64,000 nt of DNA from Escherichia coli. Lineage in GTDB: Bacteria; Pseudomonadota; Gammaproteobacteria; Enterobacterales; Enterobacteriaceae. Below the pieces are notes generated by a model, which worked only from the letters and a program-made list of their open reading frames with translations, was not told where the DNA came from and made no database searches. The stretch is from assembly GCF_044324875.1 (NCBI RefSeq), contig NZ_CP172185.1, one strand, 5' to 3'. Shown here one piece after another: positions 29,746-44,498 of this stretch. The first letter of the stretch is position 1; each line of letters opens with the position of its first letter. The position numbers and the translations under genes are program-made.

Positions 29746-30500
<755 letters not shown>

Positions 30501-35135: not shown

Positions 35136-35906
35136 GTGCCTGGTTTGAAGATTACGCTTTTGCAGCAACCACTGGTGTGGATGGATGGTCCTGCCAACCT
35201 GCGTCATTTTGATCGTCAACTGGAAGATATTACCGGACGCGATGTGATCGTTCTACCGGAGATGTTTACCAGCGGCTTTGCCATGGAAGCGGCAGCTTCG
35301 TCGCTAGCACAAGATGACGTAGTGAACTGGATGACAGCCAAAGCGCAGCAGTGCAATGCGCTGATTGCAGGCAGTGTTGCATTACAAACGGAGTCTGGTT
35401 CGGTTAACCGCTTTTTGCTGGTTGAGCCAGGCGGCACGGTACATTTTTATGATAAGCGTCATCTGTTCCGCATGGCAGATGAGCATCTGCATTATAAAGC
35501 GGGCAATGCGCGAGTGATTGTGGAATGGCGCGGCTGGCGTATTTTGCCGCTGGTGTGCTACGACTTACGTTTTCCTGTGTGGTCGCGCAATCTCAACGAT
35601 TACGACCTCGCCCTGTACGTCGCCAACTGGCCGGCTCCGCGCTCTCTGCACTGGCAGGCATTGCTGACGGCCCGCGCGATTGAGAATCAAGCGTATGTGG
35701 CGGGATGCAATCGCGTCGGCAGCGATGGCAACGGCTGCCATTATCGCGGTGACAGCCGGGTGATTAATCCACAGGGCGAGATTATCGCCACCGCCGACGC
35801 GCATCAGGCAACGCGCATTGATGCGGAGCTGTCGATGGCGGCATTGCGGGAATATAGAGAAAAGTTTCCGGCATGGCGGGATGCGGATGAGTTTAGGTTG
35901 TGGTGA
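35136..35906 (+). CDS. yafV: Omega-amidase (nitrilase/C-N hydrolase superfamily)
   Basis: ORF from a GTG start ([18 protein letters not shown]...); last conserved gene before the T6SS island. Confidence 0.9.
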
Positions 35907-35924
35907 GTGGGTGTTGTGTTTAGG

Positions 35925-36150
35925 GCCGGGGAGAGTCGGGCTAAGACTACGAAAGCCCGCTCCCCTGCGACCACTTTTATCATAGGAGTGTGGAAGCGCT
36001 TTTCCATCAATTGCGATGACGTCTTTATCATTTGATGAATGGCAATCTCGCATCCAGTTAATAAAGCATTCGTGAAATTATACTGAACGGATACAAGACA
36101 TAACTCTAATTATGGTGCCGTGAACAGGATTACCATTTTCAAAATTACGA
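35925..36150 (-). mobile_element. Internally deleted fragment of an H-repeat (ISAs1-family) element
   Basis: 35945-35970 matches the 3' end of the transposase ORF at 37380-37400 (acgaaagcccgctcccc), joined directly to sequence matching 38150-38370 (e.g. ttttccatcaattgcgatgacgtctttatcat shared); translation gives [27 protein letters not shown], cf. the full copy [27 protein letters not shown]. Confidence 0.55.
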
Positions 36151-36177
36151 TATTATTTGCAGTAATTATGTTATTAA

Positions 36178-36690
36178 TCATTGTGATATTTCCATCTCTG
36201 TGATTAATACCGGATAAGCATTTAATTGCAGAGTTTGCACGAAATTATCGCAGATAACTGGCAATAACAATAACCCATCAGCCCGCTGCTGTAATACCTC
36301 CATTCGTTCTACTGATTCAACATTAACAACCAAACCAAGGGCATTTAGCGATTTAAGGATCTCCAGATGTTCACTCATCCAGCGCAGAGAAAAAGGATCA
36401 TCACCAATTATAAAAACAGGCCCCCAGCCGGTTAATAACTGGCGTTTCATTACGGAGCCAGGATGAAGTCGAGTACATATTACAGGAAATACCCCCTGTT
36501 GCGATGGTTCCGATGATGTGGATAATTCAGAAATATTTTCCATTGTTAGTGAAGAATTAACATCCATTAATAATGGTGAAACAACCTCACTTTCCTTGCT
36601 AGTAATGGCTGCACTAATCTGAAAGGAAAATAACAATATTATTACGTACAAACTTATTTTTAACATAACACATTCAATCCGTTTATTCAT
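36178..36690 (-). CDS. Hypothetical protein with N-terminal signal/TM segment (possible orphan immunity protein)
   Basis: 170-aa ORF, N-terminal hydrophobic stretch LKISLYVIILLFSFQISAA; AT-rich; no recognised domain. Confidence 0.35.
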   Translation of the reverse strand: MNKRIECVMLKISLYVIILLFSFQISAAITSKESEVVSPLLMDVNSSLTMENISELSTSSEPSQQGVFPVICTRLHPGSVMKRQLLTGWGPVFIIGDDPFSLRWMSEHLEILKSLNALGLVVNVESVERMEVLQQRADGLLLLPVICDNFVQTLQLNAYPVLITEMEISQ

Positions 36691-36756
36691 GTTATAGAAT
36701 AATAATGCTATAAATCATCATTAATGTTCAATTATTTAATCACACAATTTAAAAAA

Positions 36757-37260
36757 TCATCGACCAATGTGAATTGGCAATGTACCACTCAAGTTAAAAT
36801 CACTGAATATTTTATCAATTTCTCTTGCAGTTTCTATATATTTAACCTCTTTCGTACTTGCATTATAAATAGCCCAAGCCTCGGGATGGGATGTTCCACC
36901 AAACCTTACAAAAAAACTTGATTTCATATTATTATATAAATTAACATCAGGAAAAGGATCTTCTCCAAAATTAGTAGTATTAAATAATGAAAGTTCGTAT
37001 CGCTTAGAAAATTCTGTTGGTAGGATAGCTTCACTGCCATCAATAGCATTCATCCAGAGTTTGTTACCATTATATTCCAACAATAATCTCTGTTTTGCAT
37101 GTGTCTTATCTCGTTCTTTAACGACAGCGAATACCTTTTTAACAACTTGCTGTGCGGATGGTCCTATTGTATTACCAAAAGCTGGCAACCCGATTTTGCC
37201 ATAAACACTCTCCTGAATGAAATAAATATCCGTTTTATCGGCCTCGACAATATCTACCAT
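36757..37260 (-). CDS. Hypothetical cytoplasmic protein (possible orphan immunity or toxin-tip protein)
   Basis: 167-aa ORF, AT-rich, no recognised catalytic motif; lies between the two H-repeat copies. Confidence 0.35.
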   Translation of the reverse strand: MVDIVEADKTDIYFIQESVYGKIGLPAFGNTIGPSAQQVVKKVFAVVKERDKTHAKQRLLLEYNGNKLWMNAIDGSEAILPTEFSKRYELSLFNTTNFGEDPFPDVNLYNNMKSSFFVRFGGTSHPEAWAIYNASTKEVKYIETAREIDKIFSDFNLSGTLPIHIGR

Positions 37261-38810: not shown

Positions 38811-39821
38811 TCAAGTAACAGGGATAAACTGACCATCAATCAGCGAAAATACCGGAGCGTAATACCCCATACGCTCTTCACCACTTTCATCTGTAAAACG
38901 GTAAGTCAGTGGGGAATATATTGGTTTCGATTTATTATATAGCTGCACCATACGTCCACCATTCATAACCCGGACGGCATAATCGTCCCACCTGATGGGC
39001 TGCATTCTGGCTTTCCCTCCCTCCACATTATCTTTTGAGAAGAGTGAGAGTAATATGTCATCCTCAGAGTCACCGGTTGTGGCTGACCATGCCTTCAGCG
39101 CCTCTTTGTTATAAGCTTTCAGACGTGCCCTGTCCCGGCTACTGATGATGCTTGCCATTTCGGTATAGGCGGCTTTTAACTTCCGTAACTGCTCGTCGCT
39201 TCCGGTATAGGGGGTTGCCCGCGTCCAGGCCCATTCAGGAAGCCCTGTCACGGTAACTTTTTGAGTGAACTGATACACCTTCATCCCTTTCGGGAAATAG
39301 GTTTCATCAAAATAATCTGGATCAATAAATCCTGGCTCCGCCTGCTCAGCCAAAATCTCTTTCCGGATAACGGGATGCACGCTGTCTGGCCGGGCTTCAG
39401 GTATGCCCTGCTGGTTGATGGTCACTTTTATTGAAGAAAGCAGCGTTTCCTCCTGTTTAATAAAACGAACCAAATCCAGGCTGCATCCTGCTTTTGGAAA
39501 AAAACGCCCCCGTTCTTCCATACTGGCAGGCTTGTCAGAAAACCATCCTAATGCCCCAATCTCCAGACTGATTTCATTTTCTCCATTCGCCATCAGCATC
39601 ATGGCATTGGTGCTGGATATGGCCCCGGTTGAATCACCATTTGCCCGCCAGGCACTTCTTCGGTTACTGAACCCGAGGACGCCATTAGTCTTAATGGCAC
39701 AATATGACTCTTCAATATTAAACTTACTGCGAATTTTTTGCTGGTTATCGTTAGAGCAAAATCCAGTTCCCATAACAACTCCTGACAGTAAAATAACCGA
39801 TATTAAATGTTTTGCCTTCAT
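38811..39821 (-). CDS. Secreted protein, candidate T6SS immunity protein
   Basis: 336-aa ORF with signal peptide and cysteine at the end of the hydrophobic region (MKAKHLISVILLSGVVMGTGFC); immediately downstream of the candidate effector; AT-rich. Confidence 0.45.
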   Translation of the reverse strand: MKAKHLISVILLSGVVMGTGFCSNDNQQKIRSKFNIEESYCAIKTNGVLGFSNRRSAWRANGDSTGAISSTNAMMLMANGENEISLEIGALGWFSDKPASMEERGRFFPKAGCSLDLVRFIKQEETLLSSIKVTINQQGIPEARPDSVHPVIRKEILAEQAEPGFIDPDYFDETYFPKGMKVYQFTQKVTVTGLPEWAWTRATPYTGSDEQLRKLKAAYTEMASIISSRDRARLKAYNKEALKAWSATTGDSEDDILLSLFSKDNVEGGKARMQPIRWDDYAVRVMNGGRMVQLYNKSKPIYSPLTYRFTDESGEERMGYYAPVFSLIDGQFIPVT

Positions 39822-39887
39822 AATTATTCTCTCTCAAAAGGGGAAAATACTCATTATACTGTTCACTTTTAATTTCTGTAATATCAC

Positions 39888-41459
39888 TTAATAATCCATA
39901 CCTATCGTCCACGTTGTCACTGGCTTCGGCGGTGTTACTTTTTTCTCCACAGTGCGTTCTTTACCGTATAAATTAACCCGTAATGGTGAATCCTTTACCT
40001 CCATAGGATCACATAACTGCCACTCAACGGTATCTTTCTTCTCAGGTTTTTCGCTCTTTTCCTTCCCCTTTCCTTTTTCATCAACTTCACCATGAGACAC
40101 ATCAATCTTAAATTCAAACTTCCCTTTAATGCCGTCATGAAATAATGCTAGGTCCAGTCCGTCATCATGTGAATCAAATCCAAATCCAGCTTTCGCTTCT
40201 ATAGAGGCAGTCGCTTCGGCGGTCAGTTGTACAACAAAAACATTCGCCTCAAACGTCGCACTCACCACACCTTTTAAACCGAGCTTGATGTTACTTTCCT
40301 TTACATTAAACTCCCATTTTTTATCCTTTTCAGCGTATACTGCGCCAAGATCAAGATTAATCTCCGCTGAAATCTCGATATAGCATTCAACACTGGCTCC
40401 GTTTTTACGGAGATATTCACGACATCTGTTGACCAATGACTCGACTTTACAATATGCACATATAAATGAAATAATATCGAATCTGAACGACGCTTCAAAA
40501 AATGGGGCACCAAACAAACCATAAAAATGACAGGGGCCATCCTGGATATCGGTATATTGATAGGCATACGATATACCCAGTTTAACGGGTTCTATTTTTG
40601 CACTGAACAATGCATATTTGCGCGTACCATTATTATTGTCAGGATCTGGCGCAAAATATTTATTGACATTCTTGACCAGAGAGTCAATTCTTCCTATCTG
40701 TTCCAGTTGCTTTGTTTGTCGAAGTTTTTTTATCTCTTTTTCATATTCACTTGTGTGTTCAACATTAGCTATTTTTACGCCAAAATCGACAGTCAGGGAA
40801 GTCTTGTTTATCCACTCAAACTCAGCAGTGGTATTTGTCCAGCCGCTACGGAGTTTATTTTTATCCCTGGGCTTGGTGTTCTCCATTGCGTCCCTGGCTT
40901 TTATTCTTTCGTCACGCCGCTCTTTTACTGTTCTCGTCTGTTTTGATGACGAAATCTCATAGCTGAACCCTGTAGTAAACCTAATTTCCACTGTAGGATA
41001 AACATCAATTTCAACATAATTGCCACATTCGTAACAACTGTCAATTCTGACTGAATAATGGGCAGGTTCATAATGATTCTTAAGTGGAGAGGATATTGCC
41101 CCCAAATAATCCCATGGTACTCGAAATGTACCCATAGCAATTATTTCACCTTCAGACAAGTTATCATCCAAAGTGACCTTATTAGGTATTCCGAAAGGTT
41201 GCAGTATCTTATGATTATTTTCTGATTCTTCCTCTAACCATGCCTCATGTGTTCCACTTTTATCGCACTGGTAGGTAATGGTAATTATACCATCACATCC
41301 GGAACCATCATCCAGTAGCTTAAAACGCGCCACTCCTTCTTTTGACCAGAAATGTTTCTCGCCGGCCTCTGGAAAATCACTAATAACATCAAAAATACAT
41401 GGATCAGGAATGCCGCATTCCACACAGGGCTTTCCGGCTGTCGAAGATGGAGATGTCAT
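39888..41459 (-). CDS. Candidate T6SS cargo effector of unknown function
   Basis: 523-aa ORF downstream of the DUF4123 adaptor gene; Cys-rich N-terminus (CVECGIPDPC, CYECGNY), charged coiled-coil-like middle, Lys/Glu-rich C-terminus; no motif I recognise; AT-rich. Confidence 0.45.
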   Translation of the reverse strand: MTSPSSTAGKPCVECGIPDPCIFDVISDFPEAGEKHFWSKEGVARFKLLDDGSGCDGIITITYQCDKSGTHEAWLEEESENNHKILQPFGIPNKVTLDDNLSEGEIIAMGTFRVPWDYLGAISSPLKNHYEPAHYSVRIDSCYECGNYVEIDVYPTVEIRFTTGFSYEISSSKQTRTVKERRDERIKARDAMENTKPRDKNKLRSGWTNTTAEFEWINKTSLTVDFGVKIANVEHTSEYEKEIKKLRQTKQLEQIGRIDSLVKNVNKYFAPDPDNNNGTRKYALFSAKIEPVKLGISYAYQYTDIQDGPCHFYGLFGAPFFEASFRFDIISFICAYCKVESLVNRCREYLRKNGASVECYIEISAEINLDLGAVYAEKDKKWEFNVKESNIKLGLKGVVSATFEANVFVVQLTAEATASIEAKAGFGFDSHDDGLDLALFHDGIKGKFEFKIDVSHGEVDEKGKGKEKSEKPEKKDTVEWQLCDPMEVKDSPLRVNLYGKERTVEKKVTPPKPVTTWTIGMDY

Positions 41460-41480: not shown

Positions 41481-42323
41481 TTATTGTGGGATAAATCCCA
41501 GTTCCTGTTGTGCAAGTTCATGTACCCGAATATGTCCCGGGTATGACTGATTGCTGAGTTGTTCATACCAGTCATCCGGAATATATCTGAGATCGATTAT
41601 ATTTTTTTTCAGTAATATAAGCGTCATTGTTCTGACGGAACGATCATCTGCTATATTTAATGACTGGCAAAAAGAGAAATAATCTTCTGCCAGAATTCGG
41701 GATGATTCAGCTTTTGATGAATCATCCCATCCGTTTTTATCTACATTTTCTTCGATAAATGCAGATAATATATCAAGATAATTATCCCGTGCCTTTCGTT
41801 CCAGTTGGCTATATTGTCTGTAACTCAGCGTCAGTTGTGATGGCCGTTCTGCCCTTATATTCATAGTTTCTGCGGGACGGACGGAAGAAAAATTATCCTC
41901 ACGACATTCTTCACCATAACGGGTACTTAGCTGTCTGACGGGACTGATAAAAGAAAGACGCTGGCGGGGGGTCAGAACTTCCACTAATACCCATATATTC
42001 CGGGGATCATAAAATCGCATGAGAACAGGTTTCTCCTGTTCGGGGATCCTAACCCACAGATAACGTCTGAAGTGTTGCTGTAGCTCACGCATGGATGACT
42101 CAGAAGTCAGATATATTCCCCATGGCGACGCCTTAACACTCAGCCATGCTTCAACCTCCGGAACGACTTCCACGAGATAGGGGGCTAGCGCGACCAGATC
42201 CAGTTGTATGGGTTCTGCATACAGACAACAGTGCGGGGGATTCACCTCGTTCAGAAAATCCAGCAATCCTTCCTCCACAGCGCCATCCACAATGGCGTAC
42301 TGCACGGGTGCCGTTTCCATCAC
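41481..42323 (-). CDS. DUF4123-family T6SS effector adaptor/chaperone (Tap/Tec-like)
   Basis: 280-aa ORF with the family's N-terminal YAIVDGA-type motif; start overlaps the vgrG stop (ATGA). Confidence 0.7.
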   Translation of the reverse strand: MMETAPVQYAIVDGAVEEGLLDFLNEVNPPHCCLYAEPIQLDLVALAPYLVEVVPEVEAWLSVKASPWGIYLTSESSMRELQQHFRRYLWVRIPEQEKPVLMRFYDPRNIWVLVEVLTPRQRLSFISPVRQLSTRYGEECREDNFSSVRPAETMNIRAERPSQLTLSYRQYSQLERKARDNYLDILSAFIEENVDKNGWDDSSKAESSRILAEDYFSFCQSLNIADDRSVRTMTLILLKKNIIDLRYIPDDWYEQLSNQSYPGHIRVHELAQQELGFIPQ

Positions 42324-44278
42324 TTATCCTCCTTCGGGCAGTGCGCCACAAACATTGTCCCGCTTCCGGCTGCGGCTTTCAGGATCACCGGGCGCATCGG
42401 CAGGATCACGTCTCCCGGACTGCCTCCGCCGTTAAGATTGATTTTCGCGCCCTTAATATCCACGCCGCCGGAATGGATCACCACAAATGAACCGCCCACC
42501 CGCAGACTGATTTTGCTGTCGCTCTGTAAAACAATATCGCCCTGTACGCTGATACCCAGCGCGCCGCTTATTTTCTGTGCCAGATCGCCTTTCACCTCCA
42601 GCCCCTGATTGCCCTCTGTCAGGCTGACATGGTCTTTGGTGGTTTTATGGTCCTGTTTACCTTCAACCGTCACTTTCCGGTCATTTGCCACCACCAGGGA
42701 TTCATCATGCCCGATGCTGACCGTCCGGTCATAGTTGACCCGCTTATCCTTGCTGTTCAGCACAACGACTTGCATATTTTTCTGTGCGTGCAGGTAAATT
42801 TCTTCCTTGTCCGTCGCGTCCTCGAACCGCAGTTCATTAAAGCCGCTTCCTTTATAGGTCTTCGATCGTATCGTCATCTGCGTCTTCGTCCCCGGCAGAC
42901 TCCCCGGCGAACGGTTGTCCTCATGGTACGTCCGCCCCATGATTATCGGCTGGTCCGGGTCGCCGTTCAGGAAGTCTACAATCACTTCCTGGCCGATGCG
43001 CGGTATCGCCAGGTTACCAAATCCCGGCCCCGCCCACGCCTGCGACACCCTCACCCAGCATGAACTCGCCTCCGTTGCCGGGTTATACCTGTCCCAGTGA
43101 AACTGCACTCGCACACGTCCGTGTTCGTCGCAGAAGATTTCCTCTCCCGCAGGACCGGTGACAATGGCGCTCTGTGGCCCGTCCACCTTCGGTTTGCTTT
43201 GCAGCCGTGGACGCCACGTCCGGTCCGCCGGTATCACCTCTAACTGATTTCCCAGCATGGTTCCTCTCCCCTGGCTGCCGTGCAGCGCCTGCGGCTGGTC
43301 CCCTGACAGAATACTCTGTACCACCTGCCATTCACGGTTCAGCATCTTCTGCGGATGCCCCGTCAGCGTAAACCGCGTTCCCGGCCACAGCTTCGGTGAA
43401 TTACTCTGCCCTGTGGCCTTTTCCGCATCACTGCGCAGGCTCTCCATCTGGTACAGCGTGAAATCCTTGCCGTGCTGTTCATCCTTGAACCTTCCCGGAT
43501 AATCAAATATCTCATACTGCTCCAGCTGTCCGTTCAGGTTCTCACCCTGCTGCTCATACATCCCCGGCCAGTCCGGCACCTTAAACGTGTAATCCTGGCT
43601 CTGCACCGACGACGGGCGGACATACGCCTCATAACGGAACATACTGACACACTCTGTCTCCGCTCCTGCCGATGTGTCCGGGTTAAACGGAAGCTCTCCC
43701 GCCTGTGACAGCCCCGCCACATCGTCGCACAGCGTCAGCTTCTGCTCCGGACTGTCCGCCGCAAACCGCTCAAAGAAGAAAATTCCCTCCTCCGCCCACA
43801 ACCGCGCCAGAAACGCCAGGTCGCTTTCCCCGTACTGGACACAGAACTCCCGCGCCGGATGGTCCTCATAAAACAGCGGTGTCCACTCCGTGACGCCGTT
43901 CTCGTTCAGTAACGTGGCCGATATCGTCCGGATATCCTGCTGCTGGAAGATACGGAAGTTCTGCCGCAGCCCGCACCGCCATAACGGCGGCTCAATACGC
44001 AGGTGATAACGCATCTGCCAGCCATTGTTCTCCTGCATGCCAAAACCCGCCACCACGCCGGTGACATAACGCAGCGGGATGACGCCCTGCCAGATGGTCA
44101 GCGTCGCCTTCTTCTCCAGCAGCATCTCCGCCGTCTGCATAAAAGAGTCGCTGGCAACATCCACACTCATCACAAACGGATAAGACTGGTTCTGGATTAA
44201 CCTGAAATGCACCACTGCAAAGGTGTCCGGCTCCTGGCCGTCAATCTCCAGCGTAAAGCGCAGACCTTTTAAGGACAT
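42320..44278 (-). CDS. vgrG: T6SS spike protein VgrG
   Basis: 652-aa ORF MSLKGLRFTLEIDGQE... with gp27/gp5-like VgrG architecture and C-terminal beta-helical repeats. Confidence 0.9.
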   Translation of the reverse strand: MSLKGLRFTLEIDGQEPDTFAVVHFRLIQNQSYPFVMSVDVASDSFMQTAEMLLEKKATLTIWQGVIPLRYVTGVVAGFGMQENNGWQMRYHLRIEPPLWRCGLRQNFRIFQQQDIRTISATLLNENGVTEWTPLFYEDHPAREFCVQYGESDLAFLARLWAEEGIFFFERFAADSPEQKLTLCDDVAGLSQAGELPFNPDTSAGAETECVSMFRYEAYVRPSSVQSQDYTFKVPDWPGMYEQQGENLNGQLEQYEIFDYPGRFKDEQHGKDFTLYQMESLRSDAEKATGQSNSPKLWPGTRFTLTGHPQKMLNREWQVVQSILSGDQPQALHGSQGRGTMLGNQLEVIPADRTWRPRLQSKPKVDGPQSAIVTGPAGEEIFCDEHGRVRVQFHWDRYNPATEASSCWVRVSQAWAGPGFGNLAIPRIGQEVIVDFLNGDPDQPIIMGRTYHEDNRSPGSLPGTKTQMTIRSKTYKGSGFNELRFEDATDKEEIYLHAQKNMQVVVLNSKDKRVNYDRTVSIGHDESLVVANDRKVTVEGKQDHKTTKDHVSLTEGNQGLEVKGDLAQKISGALGISVQGDIVLQSDSKISLRVGGSFVVIHSGGVDIKGAKINLNGGGSPGDVILPMRPVILKAAAGSGTMFVAHCPKEDK

Positions 44279-44452
44279 AATGACCTCCCTGATTTATTCA
44301 CGGACCAAATGATTCTTACCATGCAGCAAAGGGTGCCAGTGCAGCGTTACACTCATCTTTACATTTTCAGGTACGCTACCGCCCGGGTTTCCGGCATCCG
44401 CCATCTCCCTCATGAAAGCGTAACTCCTTACTGACACTCATTTTTTACACGT

Positions 44453-44488
44453 ACAAAAACAACATCCTGCACGAAGGCAGGATGTTGT
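44453..44488 (-). terminator. Hairpin terminator/attenuator between hcp and vgrG
   Basis: Minus-strand CAACATCCTGCC-ttcgtg-GGCAGGATGTTG followed by TTTTTG immediately after the hcp stop. Confidence 0.45.
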
Positions 44489-44498
44489 TGACTCAGAT

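Follow-up and report, generated by a model that had tools for sequence, protein, structure and literature searches.

The 64,000-nt stretch of Escherichia coli DNA analysed here (hereafter the window) carries a type VI secretion system (T6SS) island in which hcp, encoding the tube protein, is followed on the minus strand by vgrG, the first gene of a distal segment that continues with a DUF4123 adaptor gene and cargo genes. Our subject is the 220-nt gap between hcp and vgrG (44279–44498), in which a stem-loop with the anatomy of an intrinsic terminator stands directly past hcp and a predicted ops (operon polarity suppressor) site, at which RfaH would be loaded, follows some 75 nt beyond it, with vgrG downstream of both (Table 1). 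We propose, at a probability of roughly 0.72, that this gap is a two-part transcriptional control region, terminator and then ops, lying within an hcp-vgrG-cargo transcription unit.

Read on the coding strand, the gap opens in the order TAA-AUCUGAGUC-AACAACAUCCUGC-CUUCGU-GCAGGAUGUUGUU-UUUGUA, with the hairpin in the sense orientation and beginning 9 nt past the hcp stop codon. The stem is perfect over 13 bp, six of them G-C pairs, and the 6-nt loop is CUUCGU; a preliminary description of this DNA had rightly called the stem perfect but had made it 12 bp long, and the T-run that it placed after the hairpin, directly past hcp on the coding strand, is indeed there. With the two terminal A-U pairs opened, the stem shortens to 11 bp with C-G as its closing pair, and next to it comes UUUUUGUA (a U5 run, six T in eight), the first two U's of which can pair with the AA at 44489–44488. 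The folding energy of the hairpin is −20.3 kcal/mol (z = −4.67 relative to dinucleotide shuffles, one of 200 being as stable), and the whole window has only two perfect hairpins whose stem reaches 12 bp or more and whose loop measures 3–8 nt, 30 first-order Markov simulations having given none. It was recovered by a local repeat search and a separate hairpin scan, having been missed by a repeat search of the whole window. Given a stable, G/C-containing stem on the sense strand, an adjoining U-rich tract and a site just past a stop codon, the stem-loop after hcp is a predicted, and conserved, intrinsic (Rho-independent) terminator. The second such hairpin of the window, CTCAGTCCGGTA-TTC-TACCGGACTGAG at 29796–29822, is found in a stretch rich in insertion sequences (IS) and transposases, at the start of a 240-aa minus-strand open reading frame (ORF), and could represent either a terminator or the end of an IS. 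A repetitive extragenic palindrome, a miniature inverted-repeat transposable element or another repeated or mobile element was rejected as the identity of the 220-nt gap, which occurs as a single copy per genome.

A distant BLAST search with the 220-nt gap as query retrieved this sequence from 549 E. coli genomes and a 76–77% identical version, aligned over query positions 6–133 and located at the same locus, from 2194 further E. coli genomes with the O157-type T6SS. The stems of the two versions differ at two pairs, in each of which both partners are altered (A-U in one and U-A in the other giving way to G-C), and among the aligned E. coli variants the U-run is unchanged and the loop takes four different sequences. 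To look further afield, 80 loci encoding close Hcp relatives were fetched, one genome per species, and the 27 enterobacterial sequences with a homologous hairpin were aligned (alignment A2). Compensatory double-sided changes occur at 8 of the 13 pairs in A2, where 94.9% of the cells are paired; none of 500 shuffles reached the observed value on any of five covariation measures, and sliding the partner by 1–3 columns lowered pairing to 33–62%. Such compensatory changes across genera argue that selection has kept the hairpin as a structure. The T-run, moreover, is invariant or nearly so in A2 and falls in the top conservation bin of a 19-sequence comparison. Among all 80 loci, which span Gammaproteobacteria, 81% have a hairpin with z < −2 within the first 75 nt past the hcp stop; over the 80, the median distance from stop to hairpin is 12 nt, and the 8-nt tail of the hairpin holds at least five T in 31 and three or fewer in 31. 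Genes of this Hcp family are therefore, as a rule, followed immediately by a stem-loop, which in Enterobacteriaceae has full terminator anatomy.

The corresponding hcp3–vgrG3 gap of enterohaemorrhagic E. coli (EHEC) O157:H7 strain EDL933 has been dissected under the name 'h3R' (Vazquez-Lopez et al., Microbiol Spectr 2026, PMC13141884). It belongs to the same aspV/yafV-side island with the same gene order, is 76% identical to the window gap over 128 nt, has its hairpin at the corresponding position, with compensatory changes in two pairs and an identical U-run, UUUUUGUA, and shares the downstream block; it differs in that the window carries the variant typical of extraintestinal and avian pathogenic E. 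coli (ExPEC/APEC), with another loop and an 8-nt insertion after ops, and in that its ops is the perfect GGCGGTAGCGTG and that of the window has G12 replaced by A. The h3R hairpin as published (+8, 32 nt, 14 pairs) matches two of our fetched loci, L004 and L019, exactly. In wild-type EHEC, no reverse transcription PCR (RT-PCR) product spanning hcp3 and vgrG3 was obtained, with vgrG3 RNA detectable; deletion of region I (the hairpin) or of regions I and II gave more junction RNA, deletion of the hairpin region doubled a downstream mCherry reporter, and removal of region I left 6% of the hcp3 mRNA and ~50% of Hcp3 or of green fluorescent protein (GFP) (PMC13141884). The h3R hairpin thus blocks hcp3–vgrG3 co-transcription and stabilises hcp3 mRNA (PMC13141884). 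Attenuation after hcp, as the preliminary description had it, therefore turns out to be largely right but not new, the homologous EHEC hairpin having already been dissected: terminator anatomy, covariation and the block to co-transcription in EHEC all speak for it, and the transcript drop that it expected across the hcp–vgrG junction occurs in this close homolog. The supply of vgrG by read-through, which it also put forward, is plausible. What that description did not see is the ops site in the same gap, and termination alone, to which it ascribed a high ratio of Hcp to VgrG and effectors, is only part of the matter, since the EHEC hairpin also stabilises hcp mRNA.

The candidate ops, GGCGGTAGCGTA, lies ~75 nt past the hairpin and 95 nt upstream of the vgrG ATG. 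One-mismatch matches to ops number seven in the window where 3.7 are expected, and the string by itself is thus not convincing. Its position and conservation are more telling: the consensus ops, GGCGGTAGCGTG, is perfect in the O157-type gap and in most other genera, the conservation peak of the gap in a column-wise profile is the decamer 44381–44372 (mean 0.96), and 18 of the 80 fetched loci, from ~10 genera, carry GGCGGTAGnnTn at +114 to +132 from the hcp stop, always on the sense strand, the antisense strand being free of it throughout the 471 kb of fetched loci; 16 fetched loci have a perfect ops match. Bases 3–8 of ops form the hairpin in the non-template strand and contact RfaH (PMC5995543), and this core (CGGTAG) is intact at 44381–44376. 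Furthermore, the identical variant GGCGGTAGCGTA is one of eight RfaH sites identified by chromatin immunoprecipitation sequencing in uropathogenic E. coli CFT073 (PMC9765446 supplement), in which it precedes a PAAR-vgrG-DUF4123 island whose vgrG, like that of the window, is 1959 nt long (PMC9765446). We regard GGCGGTAGCGTA as credible because it is homologous to perfect sites, keeps core bases 3–8 and is the same string that RfaH binds in CFT073. It stands on the sense strand, in untranslated sequence that precedes a long operon, at a fixed, conserved position, and is a predicted RfaH loading and pause site; we infer that RfaH acts at this particular site. A second intact ops core in the window, GGCGGTAGAATA at 6916–6927 (plus strand), falls within overlapping ORFs instead of a leader, and is probably a chance match.

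In several respects the window resembles the known RfaH/ops operons (rfa, rfb, kps, hly, tra and those of CFT073), where a 12-nt ops in the non-template strand likewise lies in untranslated sequence and is followed by a long AT-rich, horizontally acquired segment (PMC9765446, PMC5995543). The vgrG, DUF4123 and cargo genes that lie 3′ of the ops in the window span at least 5.5 kb, and GC content is ~40% in the cargo segment (38811–41459 included) compared with 51–61% in hcp and vgrG; cargo of ~40% GC is typical of RfaH/H-NS targets (PMC9765446). It departs from the classic arrangement in that ops lies 3′ of a terminator inside a transcription unit, rather than after a mapped promoter.

The ops is embedded in a leader block of ~105 nt that is conserved in Escherichia, Citrobacter, Yokenella, Superficieibacter, Atlantibacter, Buttiauxella, Lelliottia, Phytobacter and others, and that corresponds to 'region II' of EHEC h3R. 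RNAalifold gave this block a weak consensus structure (−11.5 kcal/mol, with a covariation term of −0.05), in which a flanking stem GUUACGC/GYGUAAC may form, as may a small hairpin ahead of ops, neither with covariation support. A structured riboregulator was dropped as a candidate, the ops motif accounting for the conservation peak. Rfam searches of the gap returned no family at threshold, the remaining hits, apart from the JUMPstart match considered below, being chance hairpin matches to small-RNA terminators or microRNA stems. The 58-nt segment separating the terminator tail from ops (44384–44441; UGUCAGUAAGGAGUUACGC...GGGAGAUGGCGGAUGCCGGAAAC) is itself 0.8–0.9 conserved, for which ops alone is not sufficient reason. 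Two other candidate sites were considered and rejected: by inspection, a sigma-54 promoter at TGGCACCCTTTGC (44337–44325), where GG and GC are spaced by 8 nt and not 10 and which is absent from the O157-type sequence; and, in that O157-type sequence, a LexA-like CTGT...ACAG site, which has the wrong spacing.

Table 1. Features of the hcp–vgrG gap and of the genes that flank it, in window coordinates.
Feature	Position	Strand	Basis or detail
Intrinsic-terminator hairpin (predicted)	44458-44489	minus	5′ arm 44489-44477, loop 44476-44471, 3′ arm 44470-44458
U-tract UUUUUGUA	44452-44459	minus	3′ of 11-bp G/C-closed core stem
ops element GGCGGTAGCGTA (predicted)	44372-44383	minus (non-template, sense)	11/12 match to GGCGGTAGnnTG, G12 to A
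Conserved non-coding leader block (UGUCAGUAAGGAGUUACG ... GGGAGAUGGCGGAUGCCGGAAAC ... ops ... GUGUAACGCUGCACUGG)	44336-44441	minus	alignments, conservation profile
47-codon ORF (39 codons from ATG)	44294-44437	minus	overlaps ops
hcp, T6SS tube protein, 172 aa	44499-45017	minus	ORF list; Pfam T6SS_HCP PF05638, E=1.5e-32
hcp stop codon TAA	44501-44499	minus	sequence
vgrG ribosome-binding site AGGGAGG	44290-44284	minus	sequence
vgrG start codon ATG	44278-44276	minus	aligns with vgrG starts of relatives
vgrG, 652 aa	42320-44278	minus	Pfam Phage_GPD 5.5e-74, Phage_base_V, Gp5_trimer_C
DUF4123 adaptor gene	41481-42323	minus	Pfam DUF4123

The same order of elements recurs in the unrelated hcp–clpV gap of the Sci1 T6SS of enteroaggregative E. 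coli (EAEC). There, a frameshift in rfaH or mutation of the ops1 site in the gap abolishes downstream but not upstream expression, the ops after hcp being intra-operonic, and a consensus ops after hcp has been noted in several enterobacteria (bioRxiv 10.1101/2025.02.08.637259). We found that the hcp–clpV gap of strain 042 starts, 9 nt past the hcp stop, with a 10-bp GC hairpin followed by AUUUUUAUUUUUU, and that a second hairpin comes next and then GGCGGTAGCGTG, ~125 nt past the stop. Sci1 is thus like the window in having ops in the gap directly after hcp and a terminator ahead of it, and unlike it in belonging to another T6SS family, in having the gene order hcp-clpV and not hcp-vgrG, and in a gap sequence unrelated to that of the window except for GGCGGTAGCGTGCCTGA; the EAEC preprint makes no mention of a terminator (bioRxiv 10.1101/2025.02.08.637259). 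The second hairpin of the 042 gap (hcp–tssH in the annotation of locus L088, 29172–29339) is near-perfect over 19 bp (the UUCUUCAGCAUCUGUUGGCGGGUGCUGAAGAA region) and lies between the terminator and ops1, and this gap as a whole folds with z = −4.76. Tentatively, and with somewhat less than even confidence, we suggest that enterobacterial T6SS clusters have, in terminator-then-ops directly after hcp, a general gate-and-escort module that would have at least two origins, in unrelated gaps.

Intra-operon attenuating terminators that set subunit ratios are known from other systems, for example after the major pilin gene papA and in the rplL–rpoB attenuator, where most transcripts end at, or are stabilised by, a stem-loop past the gene of a highly expressed structural subunit and the distal genes are expressed at lower levels; neither is known to have an ops/RfaH site directly behind it. 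Several hundred copies of Hcp, and three of VgrG, are used per firing. We envisage that the first part of the gap (44452–44489) would act as a Rho-independent terminator ending most hcp transcripts at 44452–44458, and that the hairpin left at their 3′ end would shield them from exonucleases and so keep hcp mRNA abundant; termination and protection together would yield far more Hcp, at hundreds of copies per tube, than VgrG, present as one trimer. Polymerases escaping the terminator would pause in the second part (44372–44383), exposing the ops hairpin in the non-template strand, and the paused enzyme would load RfaH, which would exclude NusG and Rho and help in crossing H-NS-coated DNA. In this way the RfaH-bearing minority could be carried through the long AT-rich vgrG-adaptor-cargo segment. 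More speculatively, the 9-nt spacing from stop codon to stem could allow a trailing ribosome to modulate formation of the hairpin.

Several observations weigh against this two-part scheme. At its base the stem is rich in A-U pairs and the U-run is broken by a G, and a consensus terminator scan did not list the hcp hairpin; this last looks like an artefact of the rule, because the maximal 13-bp stem absorbs two T's and leaves four T in eight where the rule needs five. The G12A change in the window ops should weaken the pause at U11 (44373), and every ops substitution except G2C lowers the RfaH effect in vivo, although G12C, which removes the U11 pause, leaves RfaH recruitment in place (PMC5995543). 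The surroundings of the site, moreover, are unlike JUMPstart: the match to Rfam RF01707 scores 12.4 bits against a gathering threshold of 35 (E = 1.6–5.5) and ends exactly at ops, only the ops end aligning well, so that we do not assign the conserved block to this RNA family; a wider search gave no JUMPstart match. The loci with validated T6SS ops sites, from EAEC and CFT073, also lack a gathering-level JUMPstart match, and the failure therefore says little about ops function. The conserved 44384–44441 segment, for its part, showed no convincing promoter, covarying structure or coding signal. Finally, in EHEC plasmid tests VgrG3 rose when regions I and II were deleted (PMC13141884), which makes region II net inhibitory under those conditions; pausing at ops under limiting RfaH would be compatible with this result, which gives no evidence for activation.

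The EHEC authors placed a separate vgrG3 promoter in region II, from prediction software only (PMC13141884). If so, the hairpin would be a full stop, the vgrG/cargo operon would start inside the gap and ops would be an ordinary 5′-leader ops. The lack of a spanning RT-PCR product in wild-type EHEC alongside detectable vgrG3 RNA, together with the promoter and transcription-factor sites predicted in region II (PMC13141884), counts for this arrangement and against ours; all eight CFT073 RfaH sites, moreover, are described as 5′-leader sites (PMC9765446), and the ~60 nt from hairpin to ops are conserved and include TTGTCA in O157-type sequences. Nonetheless, that promoter is a computational prediction, and no tested condition activated the h3R reporter more than twofold (PMC13141884). 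It also overlaps the 3′ end of the small ORF in the gap, which would place it downstream of ops, with the most conserved element untranscribed. Our scan of the minus strand over 44279–44458, which was for sigma-70-like promoters only (at least 9/12 matches, 16–18 nt spacing), found none, and inspection by eye of the sequence past TTGTCA/GTGTCA turned up no −10 hexamer that was acceptable in both sequence and distance. Relatives with shorter gaps are also informative. The hcp–vgrG gap is 65–80 nt long in eight of them (L017, L024, L027, L028, L030, L031, L037 and L038), almost filled by the hairpin and devoid of the ops block; several of these hairpins have no U-run, and in L038 a U8 tail stands 20 nt before the vgrG ribosome-binding site. 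Such gaps leave no room for a promoter, so that vgrG must there be transcribed through the hairpin. As the EAEC ops after hcp is intra-operonic besides, we consider a full stop with a separate promoter unlikely. An internal promoter feeding ops is scarcely better placed, and we infer that it is read-through past the hairpin that feeds ops and vgrG, which seems to us reasonably, if by no means overwhelmingly, likely.

Could the hairpin instead serve mainly as a 3′-end or processing stabiliser of mRNA against exonucleases, with the Hcp/VgrG ratio arising by differential decay of one transcript? The fall of hcp3 mRNA to 6%, with Hcp3 or GFP halved, on deletion of region I in EHEC would fit this, as would the many hcp-proximal hairpins of other genera without a U-run (the 31 of 80 with no more than three T in eight). 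A pure stabiliser needs no U-run, however, and in enterobacteria the run is as conserved as the stem; deletion of the hairpin region in EHEC, moreover, raised junction RNA and the downstream reporter. We therefore find stabilisation as the main role very unlikely, but the stabiliser and terminator roles are not exclusive and the terminator-then-ops scheme already includes stabilisation. Another possibility is a small protein encoded in the conserved block by the MADAGNFGGSVPE... ORF of Table 1, with GGCGGTAGCG conserved as Gly-Gly-Ser codons. This ORF keeps the same frame relative to ops and its core, MADAGNFGGSVPE, is open in most relatives, often from a conserved ATG, and in some O157-type genomes the annotation lists its counterpart as a 'hypothetical protein' (EDL933_0238, WP_001297813.1). 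The frame is broken, on the other hand, by an 8-nt indel between the two E. coli variants and by a 2-nt deletion in Buttiauxella A111 (L020), the ATG is AAG in B. brennerae (L018) and a stop comes right after ops in Atlantibacter (L021), while lengths range over 8–58 aa among relatives with unrelated C-termini. GGGAG directly abuts the ATG with no spacer, inspection of the alignment revealed no third-position substitution bias, and the ORF has no Pfam match. RfaH, in addition, is not recruited at ops within translated regions (PMC9765446), and a translated ORF would thus defeat the ops. A coding role is, in our view, scarcely credible; we judge the ORF to be a by-product of constraint at the nucleotide level and not a real gene, and the 'hypothetical protein' called in the hcp–vgrG gap is probably a spurious genome annotation.

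Comparison of the flanks among relatives bears on how the two elements travel. Judged by the gaps with and without it, the ops block behaves as a discrete ~150-nt insertion or deletion. In two Lelliottia loci (L023, L025) and in C. werkmanii (L034), 2–2.6 kb of other genes, one of them for a DUF4225 protein, lie between the hairpin-ops pair and vgrG, and the pair has remained beside hcp (inserted genes at +200 to +2600). Because hairpin and ops stay with hcp despite these insertions, the module would serve whatever is distal to hcp, and it is suggested to mark a hotspot for cargo insertion.

As to the wider locus, 401 nt around the hairpin are 100% identical to E. coli strain 118UI and to other ExPEC/APEC-type genomes, and the annotated neighbourhood in 118UI is a complete T6SS island adjoining yafV-ivy-fadE, with hcp (100% identical) annotated as an Hcp family protein. 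tssB and tssC are divergent from an AT-rich 700-bp region upstream of hcp. Two proteins encoded 3′ of the DUF4123 adaptor gene (523 and 336 aa; 38811–41459) matched no Pfam family, and are presumably an uncharacterised effector/immunity pair. RefSeq tags the 652-aa vgrG (42320–44278) as a pseudogene in 118UI ('missing C-terminus'). The orphan island c1882–c1889 of CFT073 has a vgrG of equal length, 1959 nt, followed by DUF4123, and the cargo module thus appears to be common to the main T6SS cluster and orphan islands. Just past the T6SS cargo genes, at ~35760–37010 (L001 27591–28841), lies ltrA, for a group II intron reverse transcriptase/maturase, and this intron sits within a disrupted ISAs1-family transposase according to the 118UI annotation.

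The hairpin is an ordinary terminator and the ops is of a known kind that has already been tied to T6SS; what may be new, at most, is the terminator-ops pair as a conserved module and, with it, a re-reading of EHEC region II. The pair links two recent lines of work, neither of which describes it: the EHEC h3R study, which mentions neither ops nor RfaH and in which region II is a predicted promoter where we see an ops leader, and the EAEC RfaH preprint with no terminator. If the proposal is right, the terminator would hold the flux past hcp at a fixed low level, and RfaH at ops would decide whether that flux reaches the spike, adaptor and toxin genes. Region II of EHEC h3R would then be an RfaH site and not a promoter, and RfaH availability could be the missing factor whose lack silences VgrG3 and PAAR, and hence the EHEC T6SS, in vitro. 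This is a candidate explanation for the failure to produce VgrG3 in EHEC after promoter swapping and hns deletion, and how one transcription unit yields such Hcp/VgrG ratios is a practical question for switching on silent T6SSs.

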